Shown: piece by piece, positions 1 through 1,593 of the stretch
Layout: each line of letters opens with the position of its first letter
Numbering within the stretch: the stretch's first letter is position 1
Origin: a virus
Taxonomy: Duplodnaviria > Heunggongvirae > Uroviricota > Caudoviricetes
Strand: one strand, 5' to 3'
Virus record (IMG/VR): IMGVR_UViG_2695420427_000018
DNA length: 4,017 nucleotides
The notes under the pieces: generated by a model
Told to the model about the DNA's origin: nothing
Seen by the model: the letters and a program-made list of their open reading frames with translations, nothing else
Databases searched by the model: none
Program-made: the position numbers and the translations under genes

Positions 1-34
1 CTCCAATGACTAGTCTAAAAACTAGTATTAAGAC

Positions 35-54
35 TATCACTTATTTAAGTGATA
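35..54. promoter_or_regulatory. Perfect inverted repeat TATCACTT-ATTT-AAGTGATA (8-bp arms, 4-bp spacer); candidate distal operator
   Basis: Read directly: 35-42 tatcactt is the reverse complement of 47-54 aagtgata. It shares the TATCAC half-site with the palindrome at 847-861 next to the repressor start. The functional role is inferred. Confidence 0.35.
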
Positions 55-293
55 CTGGTTGTCTGGAGATTCAGGGGGCCAGTCTAGTTGCCAAGATCGA
101 TAGTATTCATGTTGACCCCATTTCCCCTTAACGCCGGGTGGCGGAACGTTTTATCTACTGCGCTTTGTATCAATCAACAACTGCCGTCATGTTCGTATGC
201 CTCAGGCTGGCTACTTAGCCCTGTTCAGTGACTGGATAACTCGAGGTATTGTCCTGCCGTTCTCTGGTGGGGCGTTGTTTGGATATGCTTATT

Positions 294-332
294 AAACACA
301 ATTTGTTTTCTTGTGTCAACACGCAATGTGTT
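294..332. repeat. Cluster of short inverted repeats of the ACACAA/TTGTGT type downstream of the repressor terminator
   Basis: Read directly: acacaa 296-301 pairs with ttgtgt 311-316, and aacac 318-322 pairs with gtgtt 328-332. The same motif family recurs at 869-880 and 893-907 in the divergent promoter region. Confidence 0.3.
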
Positions 333-835: not shown

Positions 836-846
836 TGCATCCTTGT

Positions 847-861
847 ATCACGAATCGTGAT
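847..861. promoter_or_regulatory. Operator candidate: perfect palindrome ATCACGA-A-TCGTGAT
   Basis: Read directly: 7-bp arms 847-853 and 855-861 are reverse complements. It sits immediately upstream of the repressor RBS and start codon, and shares the TATCAC half-site with the site at 35-54. Confidence 0.5.
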
Positions 862-892
862 TTACATAAAACACAAAACAGCTTGGCTATAT

Positions 893-907
893 AACACAAG
901 GTGTGTT
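893..907. promoter_or_regulatory. Operator candidate: palindrome AACACA-AGG-TGTGTT
   Basis: Read directly: 6-bp arms 893-898 and 902-907 are reverse complements. It lies between the putative -35 and the RBS of the Cro-like gene. Confidence 0.4.
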
Positions 908-931
908 TAAAATTGTCATCGGAGGTTTTCA

Positions 932-1174
932 ATGAACAAAATTTCAACATATCGAAAACAGCTTGGGCTGTCTCAAAGACAACTTGCTGTTCAGTTAGGG
1001 TGGATACAAAGCCGACTGGCAAATTACGAAGCAAATTTTCGTACCCCTGGACTAGAGGAGTGCAGAAAAATTGTTTCTACCCTTAATCGGCTTGGCGCTC
1101 ATTGTGGACTTGACGATGTATTCCCCCCAGACGGTAAGCATAGCGAAAACAGCATAGGAGCGGTTGATTCATGA
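932..1174 (+). CDS. ydaS: Cro-like HTH DNA-binding protein (YdaS family), 80 aa
   Basis: GGAGG RBS 921-925 with a 6-nt spacer to ATG 932. The HTH segment LGLSQRQLAVQLGWIQSRLANYEAN has a recognition helix nearly identical to the divergent repressor. An upstream in-frame stop at 908-910 excludes a longer N-terminus. The symbol is by synteny and recall; my recalled K-12 length differs. Confidence 0.85.
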   Translation: MNKISTYRKQLGLSQRQLAVQLGWIQSRLANYEANFRTPGLEECRKIVSTLNRLGAHCGLDDVFPPDGKHSENSIGAVDS

Positions 1175-1593
1175 AAATCAGGCATGAGCACATCGAATCA
1201 GTGTTGTTAGCCCTGGCAGCCGAAAAAGGGCAGGCGTGGGTCGCTAACGCAATTACTGAAGAATATCTGCGCCAGGGGGGCGGCGAATTGCCCCTTGTAC
1301 CAGGCAAGGACTGGAACAATCAGCAGAATATCTATCACCGTTGGTTGAAAGGTGAAACGAAAGCGCAAAGGGAAAAAATTCAGAAACTGATCCCTGCGGT
1401 TCTGGCAATTCTTCCGCGCGAGCTGCGTCACCGACTCTGCATCTTCGATACCCTGGAACGCCGTGCATTACTGGCGGCGCAGGAAGCGTTGAGTACGGCA
1501 ATTGATGCGCATGATGATGCAGTCCAGGCCGTTTACCGGAAAGCGCATTTCAGCGGCGGCGGGTCTTCCGACGATTCTGTCATTGTTCATTAA
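1171..1593 (+). CDS. ydaT: YdaT-family protein (CII-like regulator / putative growth inhibitor), 140 aa
   Basis: 140-aa ORF with AGGAG at 1156-1160 upstream. Its start overlaps the ydaS stop by ATGA (1171-1174), suggesting translational coupling. The sequence closely matches what I recall of Rac prophage YdaT (MKI.HEHIESVL.ALAAEKGQAWVANAITEEYLRQGGGELPLVPGKDWNNQQNIYHRWLKGETKAQREKIQKLIPA). Confidence 0.9.
   Translation: MKIRHEHIESVLLALAAEKGQAWVANAITEEYLRQGGGELPLVPGKDWNNQQNIYHRWLKGETKAQREKIQKLIPAVLAILPRELRHRLCIFDTLERRALLAAQEALSTAIDAHDDAVQAVYRKAHFSGGGSSDDSVIVH

Follow-up and report, generated by a model that had tools for sequence, protein, structure and literature searches.

A putative three-site lambdoid switch, with operators that vary together with their repressors, in a Rac-like prophage of Escherichia coli

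IMGVR_UViG_2695420427_000018 is an IMG/VR virus record from which one stretch of 4,017 bp (the window) was analyzed; it holds the immunity and replication region of a Rac-like lambdoid Escherichia coli prophage. Two divergent genes in the window, one for a helix-turn-helix (HTH) repressor and one for an HTH protein resembling Cro (hereafter Cro), are separated by an intergenic gap of 96 nt between their start codons (positions 836 to 931). This gap is probably the right operator (OR) of a three-site bistable switch of the lambdoid kind, with two palindromes as its outer sites, OR3 and OR1, and with a repressor of the DicA/Gifsy type and a related Cro as its regulators. An earlier interpretation of the same DNA, here called the sequence-only reading, had noted the two palindromes and the likeness of the two recognition helices, and had proposed that both proteins compete for the same operators in the manner of lambda CI and Cro.

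Operator sites of this kind are a direct handle on what keeps a Rac-like prophage silent, including YdaT and toxic genes of the kil/ydfA type, and knowing the operators makes it possible to predict homoimmunity among prophages. None of the three exact operator strings turned up a paper, and the searchable literature yielded no published description of the operators of this immunity type; the switch itself is an ordinary member of a familiar class. What is generally understood about lambdoid switches is left unchanged and the interest is modest, the most useful aspects being the co-variation series and the chimeras that share a Cro. The natural series of helix and half-site variants makes a useful small data set on specificity change in XRE repressors.

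Three phased sites in the right operator

Both perfect palindromes are present, as a read-out of the sequence and a pattern search agree: ATCACGAATCGTGAT at 847-861 and AACACAAGGTGTGTT at 893-907. They belong to one family, A-W-CAC-N5-GTG-W-T, and their starts lie 46 bp apart. Exactly midway between them is a degenerate third site, OR2 (870-884), which was absent from the sequence-only reading, as were the left operator (OL) copies at 295-332. The three OR sites start at 847, 870, and 893, a 23-bp phasing, and have an AWCAC half-site in common. Only the left half of OR2 is good, and a degenerate middle site is found at the same place in most related loci. OR3 is the sole site in the window with ATCAC in both halves, and no AACAC-type site there has T at position 2.

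A single palindrome in such a region is unremarkable: mononucleotide shuffles of the intergenic region yielded at least one palindrome with 6-bp arms and a spacer of 0 to 5 bp in 15% of cases. Taken together, the palindromes go far beyond chance. Exact matches to AWCAC-N5-GTGWT number three in the window (0.02 expected), and matches with at most one mismatch number four (0.48 expected), all in the two regulatory regions; these pattern counts are indicative, since the pattern was defined after the sites had been seen, and the conservation tests that follow are independent of that choice.

Conservation within the immunity type

Conservation of the palindromes in related prophages, which the sequence-only reading had named as a check, was assessed in 80 IMG/VR contigs whose repressors are 83-100% identical to that of the window and which supplied 33 distinct ungapped intergenic sequences. 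The IMG/VR scan returned close relatives of this range and no further immunity types, and all 80 contigs encode the repressor motif GWTQSRIGNYE and the Cro motif GWIQSRLANYE. The arms of OR3 and OR1 vary at none of their 20 positions, and the spacer centers vary freely. Across the 33 variants, 36 of the 96 intergenic positions vary, against 0/20 arm positions (one-sided Fisher P = 1.9e-5); when the AACAC half of OR2 is added, the count becomes 0/25 (Fisher P = 6.9e-7), P values that are generous in that the variants are related to one another and the test overstates their independence.

The variable positions include the centers of the spacers (854-855 and 899-902) and the right half of OR2 (880-882). 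The left palindrome had been described with arms of seven bases around a single central base. Its 6-bp arms (ATCACG...CGTGAT) are conserved, whereas the 7-1-7 form is specific to this copy, because positions 854 and 855 vary. The same pattern of conservation holds in a smaller set, made up of six copies from E. coli genomes and one from Salmonella. At the left operator, an exact AACAC-N5-GTGTT occupies the OL2 position in 80/80 IMG/VR loci with variable spacers, and the GTGTT arm of OL1 beside the -10 element is kept in every locus inspected.

Repressor and Cro-like proteins

The HTH motifs reported earlier are found in the open reading frame (ORF) translations: GWTQSRIGNYEA at residues 40-51 of the repressor (nt 683-718) and GWIQSRLANYEA at residues 23-34 of Cro (nt 998-1033). 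The recognition helices are indeed nearly identical (QSRIGNYEA and QSRLANYEA, the same at seven of nine positions). In an AlphaFold model of the repressor, the recognition helix is helix 3, comprising residues 43-51 (nt 683-709), and the predicted recognition helix of Cro comprises residues 26-34 (nt 1007-1033). The two differ at I/L and G/A, and also at the residue just before the helix, which is T42 in the repressor and I25 in Cro. BLASTP aligns the two proteins without gaps over 42 residues at 45% identity (E = 2e-10).

The AlphaFold model (mean predicted local distance difference test score, pLDDT, 84.6) has helices at residues 2-27, 32-39, 43-51, 58-68, 72-77, 89-99, and 103-133. Its N-terminal domain superposes at about 1 Å on C.AhdI and on the P22 C2-operator complex, and at 1.4-3.0 Å on 434 repressor and Cro; most chains fall between 1.0 and 1.7 Å, and the value of 3.0 Å belongs to the nuclear magnetic resonance (NMR) model of 434 repressor. 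A phmmer search matches repressor residues 17-82 to residues 2-66 of the 434 repressor chain. The positions of the 434 helix that contact bases are established, and repressor residues Q43, S44, R45, and N48 align with them; Cro has the same four residues.

The repressor thus has a five-helix XRE HTH at its N-terminus (HTH_3 being its only Pfam domain) and a two-helix C-terminal domain in the model. An S24 peptidase or self-cleavage domain was not found in the 139 residues (Pfam: HTH families only); given this and the two-helix C-terminal domain, the repressor is not a member of the LexA-like self-cleaving family of lambda, 434, and P22. It is 29% identical to Qin DicA over the full length (E = 2e-15), the two sharing a C-terminal LLELFNxLPxSEQ, and many positions of its C-terminal domain do not vary across 21 homologues. 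By these features the repressor is assigned to the short-repressor type of DicA and Gifsy GfoR-GtgR (about 125-160 amino acids, with an XRE HTH, a helical C-terminus, and no cleavage domain).

Taken alone, the repressor HTH (residues 12-83) is 58% identical to the N-terminus of mEp213 CI and to an unannotated stretch of phage ECP1, and 49% identical to CI of mEpX1 and of the Stx1 phage VT1-Sakai. The CI proteins of mEp213 and mEpX1 are labeled LexA-family regulators in RefSeq. The same DNA-reading domain seems, from these alignments, to be combined with either a cleavable or a DicA-type C-terminus.

Cro has a homologue of solved structure in the Protein Data Bank, the 82-residue "lambda repressor-like protein" 28tn (E = 8e-15), for which no paper was found. 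This protein shares the C-terminal CRKIV..LN..GA..DDVFPP with Cro and has a different recognition helix (LTAGAICHYENG). A 30-nt inverted repeat (727-756 against 960-989, 83% complementary) raised the possibility that the two HTH coding regions had recently arisen by duplication or undergone gene conversion, and this was considered and rejected. The repressor and cro HTH coding regions are 50% identical over an aligned 126 nt and 36% identical at third codon positions, values low enough to indicate that the similarity of the two HTH domains is old and has been kept at the protein level.

Co-variation of operators and recognition helices

Loci of other specificity were collected from a scan of one genome per species and from look-ups of selected homologues. 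They come from Salmonella, Citrobacter, Dryocola, Klebsiella, Pectobacterium, Enterobacter, Kosakonia, Kluyvera, and Yersinia, with two phage records and a Serratia-like contig submitted under the name Sphingomonas in addition. In an alignment of 13 intergenic regions from 9 genera, the mean column identity is 53%. The invariant columns are the repressor start codon, the TA pair beside OR3, the CAC(G)/GTG cores of OR3 and OR1, one position of OR2, and two bases beside OR1.

The outer two bases of the half-sites vary among loci and are nearly always equal at OR1 and OL within a locus. They also vary together with the start of the repressor recognition helix: AACAC half-sites at OR1 and OL accompany GW[TA]QSR, GACAC or GTCAC half-sites accompany GWATASR and GWSTASR, and TTCAC or CTCAC half-sites accompany GWSG[AS][SP]R and GWSTSSR. 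On this comparative evidence, the co-variation is the behavior to be expected of real operators evolving with their repressor.

OR3 follows another rule and is unlike OR1 in every locus. It reads ACCAC...GTGTT or ACCAC...GTGGC where the start of the Cro helix has an arginine (GWRQSR, GWGRSR, GWKRSR), and ATCAC...GTGAA or ATCAC...GTGAT where Cro has GWIQSR, GWNQPR, or GWGQSR. The locus pPE4 (L002 3299-4028, phage record PP818812, "Actinobacillus phage vB_Apl-pPE4") encodes a Cro 100% identical to that of the window, but paired with a GWSGSSR repressor and with OR1 and OL sites of the CTCAC type; its OR3, ATCAC-GATGT-GTGAA, retains the ATCAC half. The stated Actinobacillus host is doubtful, since parts of the record are 96% identical to E. 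coli prophage DNA. Two Salmonella loci (L025 and L029) likewise have one Cro in common and differ in repressor and operators. The paired operator sets of these identical-Cro loci share the CAC/GTG cores and the ATCAC half of OR3 and little else. Because L025 and L029 share the sequence immediately before the cro ATG, the recombination junction is placed between OR1 and that stretch.

These patterns suggest, with about an even chance of being right, that OR3 is the best site of Cro and that T at position 2 suits a Cro of the isoleucine type. A broader proposal is possible but doubtful, namely that immunity and Cro function are separable: the start of the repressor helix and the outer two bases of OR1 and OL would set the immunity type, and Cro would read mainly the invariant CAC core and base 2 of the OR3 half-site (Ile, Asn, or Gly with T; Arg with C:G), so that one Cro could serve at least two heteroimmune sets, essentially through OR3. 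If this is true, the natural chimeras (window and pPE4; L025 and L029) are a ready-made specificity code of one residue and one base pair, and they show new immunities arising through recombination between OR1 and cro.

Left operator and promoters

The left operator lies downstream of the repressor gene, and its two sites, OL1 and OL2, start 23 bp apart (295 and 318). The putative leftward promoter, PL, would drive a ydfA-like early-left operon; the layout OL2-TTGACA-OL1-TAAT is found in relatives also, and the position of PL matches that of dicBp in Qin (PMC10448788). The putative rightward promoter, PR, which would serve cro, was placed from the sequence and from alignment with the TTGACx-N17-TTTAAT arrangement of most relatives. 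The same promoter geometry, in which the second operator site overlaps the -35 element and the first fills the spacer, is repeated at OR, at OL, and across the loci examined. Transcripts from PR and PL would begin near 918 and near 284-285, respectively.

On the opposite strand of OR, a TA-initiated hexamer lies 6-7 nt upstream of the repressor ATG in 13/13 aligned loci (T14 and A15 being invariant columns), and several of these loci have no Shine-Dalgarno sequence before the repressor. Taken together, the position of the hexamer and the missing Shine-Dalgarno sequences indicate that the repressor mRNA is probably leaderless, or nearly so, starting at about 835. Lambda cI and paaR2 are known to give leaderless transcripts (PMC8630535). 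For transcription beginning near 835, the centers of OR3, OR2, and OR1 lie near -19, -42, and -65 relative to the repressor promoter, and the order is reversed for PR; lambda OR has the same layout of three sites relative to both promoters.

PR has TTGGCT as its -35 element in the window, and nearly all other IMG/VR copies and the genome copies examined have TTGACC, TTGACT, or TTGACA. The intergenic region is identical to that of the window in only 6/80 IMG/VR copies. Judged from these sequences, TTGGCT is likely a down-mutation of PR in this lineage, in a copy that has also been hit by IS2. A promoter-scan match at 913-942 was set aside; it runs into the cro coding sequence.

A proposed switch and its alternatives

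The palindromes behave as operators in having conserved arms, free spacers, and co-variation with the proteins. Since the repressor and Cro also have the same predicted base-contacting residues (Q, S, R, N), the use of overlapping operators by the two proteins is the best reading of these comparisons. The repressor, presumably as a dimer, would bind sites of the AACAC type, namely OR1 and OR2 together with their counterparts OL1 and OL2. From OR1, in the PR spacer, from OR2, at the PR -35 element, and from OL1 and OL2, placed likewise at PL, it would shut off both early operons. When bound at OR2, centered about 41 bp upstream of its own ATG, it could activate its own weak promoter, on the model of lambda CI, which activates its own promoter from its OR2. 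Cro, with the same Q-S-R...N residues, would read the same CAC/GTG core and prefer the ATCAC half-sites of OR3; OR3 adjoins the -10 element of the repressor promoter, so Cro bound there would turn repressor synthesis off. For a repressor without a self-cleavage domain, induction is expected to proceed through an antirepressor, as for the Gifsy repressors and for DicA with Rem; neither an antirepressor gene nor a LexA box was found in the 4,017 bp.

Several points weigh against this proposal. The case for the module is comparative throughout: the sites with their phasing and conservation, the way in which they vary together with the proteins, and the folds and homologies of the proteins are directly established here, and from there we infer the binding partners of each site and the order of binding, where transcription starts, autoactivation, and the route of induction. 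The post hoc definition of AWCAC-N5-GTGWT makes the shuffle and expected counts optimistic, and the kinship of the 33 variants favors the Fisher test. OR2 has one conserved half-site only in this copy, and a third OL site was not found by eye at the expected 341-355, so that two are recognizable. A promoter scan reported none of PR, PL, and the repressor promoter, which were placed by eye and by homology; PR was missed because the tool requires A at position 2 of the -10 element. The association of OR3 form with Cro type draws on some five lineages showing two states. Finally, Rac YdaT also protects the racR-ydaS intergenic region (PMC11879457), and a third protein may thus act here.

The sequence-only reading had allowed that its two palindrome classes might be distinct operator types or belong to different regulators. 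If AACAC sites served the repressor only and the ATCAC palindrome served Cro only, there would be no real competition between the proteins. In keeping with this are the difference between OR3 and OR1 in every locus, the dependence of OR3 on the Cro type rather than the repressor type, the presence of T at position 2 in both halves of OR3 and in no AACAC-type site of the window, and the occurrence of an identical Cro with OR1/OL sets of the AACAC and of the CTCAC type, which have hardly anything in common except the cores and the ATCAC half of OR3. Yet both kinds of site have one CAC-N5-GTG core, one length, and one 23-bp phasing, and the two proteins are identical at the base-contacting positions known from 434. 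OR3 is moreover a hybrid in most relatives, its right half being of the OR1 type (ACCAC...GTGTT, ATCAC...GTGAA), which suggests that both proteins can use it, and overlapping use is known in lambda and 434 and is seen in the footprints of PaaR2 and YdaS (PMC8630535). Strictly separate operator types are thus judged unlikely. The two classes stand as differently tuned sites, with the OR1/OL half-site tracking the repressor type and OR3 the Cro type; given the common core and phasing, they do not stand as the separate sites of unrelated regulators.

It is very improbable that the CII-like YdaT or a host factor is instead what binds the palindrome at 847-861. Rac K-12 YdaT, 97% identical to YdaT of the window, protects some 100 bp between racR and ydaS and reduces the expression of racR (PMC11879457), and a YdaT-box-like sequence with three mismatches overlaps the right edge of OR3 (857-874). 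This match is at chance level, however (4 matches against 3.1 expected), and the YdaT box, TTGATT-N6-AATCAA, has another half-site and another spacing, with a good copy at 1164-1181. In addition, OR3 is kept beside the repressor start in loci whose YdaT has 164-187 residues rather than 140, and its outer bases track Cro. That the palindromes are chance features of an AT-rich region, or mere promoter elements with no dedicated binding protein, is scarcely credible. The ease with which shuffling yields a 6-bp-arm palindrome and the overlap of OR3 and OR1 with the putative -10 and spacer elements would fit this explanation, but not one arm position changes among the 33 variants, in which 36 other positions do, and matching copies lie at OL. 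The outer bases also change with the recognition helices across genera, which promoter function alone cannot explain.

Comparison with known switches

Lambda, with whose CI and Cro the sequence-only reading had compared the pair, is the wrong detailed analogue, because its CI and Cro have unrelated folds. In 434 and P22, the five-helix XRE fold is common to repressor and Cro, whose recognition helices are alike, and the repressor and Cro of 434 share helix and operators; these phages are the closer model. The window likewise has an HTH_3 repressor and Cro with near-identical helices, three phased palindromic operators between divergent promoters, and matching OL sites. The 434 operator is a 14-mer (ACAA-N6-TTGT), in contrast to the 15-mer AWCAC-N5-GTGWT of the window, so that the mechanism would be of the same kind with another specificity. 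In contrast to lambda, 434, and P22, the repressor of the window is a 139-residue protein with a DicA-type helical C-terminus and no S24 domain.

The layout of the window is that of the Qin DicA region (cro-like gene, operators, repressor, terminator, leftward promoter, and ydfA DUF1391). DicA and DicC form a bistable switch in which DicA acts at dicCp and dicBp (PMC10448788, PMC3441716), and DicA is inactivated through the antirepressor Rem (PMC10448788). The DicA operator Oc (TTGTTAGTCATAACTAACAA; PMC3441716) has a specificity other than that of the window. Qin DicC is unlike the HTH of DicA and unrelated to Cro of the window; membership of this Cro in the DicC family was rejected for want of sequence similarity, and the published Oc operator also differs. 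GfoR, GfhR, and GtgR of the Gifsy phages are short lambdoid repressors without a cleavage site that are displaced by antirepressors, and DicA and RacR have been placed with them (PMC3121763). The likeness of the repressor to these proteins is by family description, the named Gifsy proteins not being among the searchable sequences; a Salmonella homologue of the repressor, 83% identical, sits in a prophage of the recE/ydaT/dnaC type.

The right arm of the window is that of Rac and CP-933P, with YdaT, a YdaT box over the ydaT ATG, ydaU, and a ydaV-like DnaC-type gene. In CP-933P, the footprints of PaaR2 and YdaS overlap at OR, and both proteins repress the PL promoter, which carries similar operators (PMC8630535). 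The repeat consensus there (GTTTAGTAA; PMC8630535) differs from the operators of the window, and PaaR2 is set apart by this consensus alone. Membership in the RacR/YdaS pair was rejected: the repressor matches RacR with E = 2.1, and Cro gives no alignment to YdaS. By these sequence comparisons, the module of the window is classed as a heteroimmune cassette in a Rac-like backbone.

Gene layout and the YdaT box

The genes of the window stand in the order known from Rac, CP-933P, and Qin: the HTH genes for repressor and Cro diverge from each other, and beyond cro come ydaT (CII-like), ydaU, and a dnaC-like gene. Downstream of ydaT are a DUF1376/ydaU-type replication gene, the dnaC-like gene, and a DUF977 gene (ORFs, Pfam). 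The features are listed in Table 1. The immunity region is found in 153/5,426 complete E. coli genomes as a single chromosomal copy, O157:H7, O145, and O55:H7 strains included, and close relatives of it occur in Salmonella as well.

Table 1. Positions of genes, operator sites, and putative control elements in the window
Feature	Position	Strand	Sequence and remarks
IS2 element end	1-86		terminal 86 bp; transposase gene just past the left edge of the window
ydfA/ydaF-like DUF1391 gene, first 8 codons	start at 110	minus	truncated by IS2
PL (putative)	291-319	minus	-35 TTGACA 319-314, 17-bp spacer, -10 TTTAAT 296-291
OL1	295-309		minus-strand reading AAAAC-AAATT-GTGTT; 1-mismatch match; fills spacer of leftward promoter
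OL2	318-332		AACAC-GCAAT-GTGTT; exact pattern match; overlaps leftward promoter -35 by 2 bp
Intrinsic terminator, downstream of repressor gene	367-385	minus	terminator scan: 8-bp stem with 6 GC pairs, then T run
Repressor gene, 139 aa	416-835	minus	ORF; ATG at 835; XRE HTH
Repressor promoter -10 (putative)	842-847	minus	TACAAG; begins at last base of OR3, ends 6 nt before ATG
OR3	847-861		ATCAC-GAATC-GTGAT; touches putative -10 of repressor promoter
OR2, degenerate	870-884		AACAC-AAAAC-AGCTT; exactly 23 bp from OR3 and OR1; last 2 bp overlap PR -35
PR, cro promoter (putative)	883-911	plus	-35 TTGGCT 883-888, 17-bp spacer, -10 TTTAAA 906-911
OR1	893-907		AACAC-AAGGT-GTGTT; fills spacer of PR
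Shine-Dalgarno sequence of cro	921-925	plus	GGAGG; precedes cro ATG
Cro-like gene, 80 aa	932-1174	plus	ORF; ATG at 932; XRE HTH, Pfam HTH_3
YdaT box	1164-1181		TTGATTCATGAAAATCAG; spans ydaT start codon (ATG in spacer); 1 mismatch to TTGATT-N6-AATCAA
ydaT, CII-like regulator, 140 aa	1171-1593	plus	Pfam YdaT_toxin; PHROG CII-like activator

The first 86 bp of the window are 100% identical to IS2 ends that E. coli genomes carry at over 20,000 sites. The IS2 insertion cuts off the ydfA/ydaF-like gene, so that the early-left operon would be disrupted in this copy of the prophage.

The sequence TTGATT-N6-AATCAA has been footprinted in CP-933P (PMC9986795) and ATGATTCATGAAAATCAA in Rac (PMC11879457). 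The box over the ydaT ATG leads to the expectation of a YdaT-activated reverse promoter inside the cro-like gene, analogous to lambda PRE. YdaT was also considered as the protein that binds the palindromes and was rejected in this role, its box being another motif whose sole intergenic match has three mismatches.

Exchange of HTH cassettes and other divergent loci

Twelve further loci (L013-L024, from Klebsiella, Serratia, Sodalis, Kluyvera, Pluralibacter, Dryocola, Phytobacter, Symbiopectobacterium, and Lonsdalea) encode repressors that have the C-terminal domain of the window repressor and another N-terminal HTH (e.g., GVTPQAVNGWFKKG). Ten of the twelve also encode a short Cro with an HTH similar to the one in the repressor of the same locus (e.g., GVSGMAVSQWKAKG). 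In these loci the HTH regions of repressor and Cro appear, from their sequences, to have been exchanged together with the operators as a cassette.

In a Yersinia locus (L030, Logan SRR17289144), repressor and Cro have the identical motif GWSQSRIGNYE; its intergenic sites are half-palindromes only (ATCACGATATGCATT, AATTCATATTGTGTT), with no clean fit to the pattern. Loci L010 and L023 lie on NZ_JBNNOB010000016, a contig labeled Sphingomonas sp. that carries a related Cro and operator module and whose available repressor sequence matches the Serratia homologue P0023; this contig is probably contamination or a mislabeled record.

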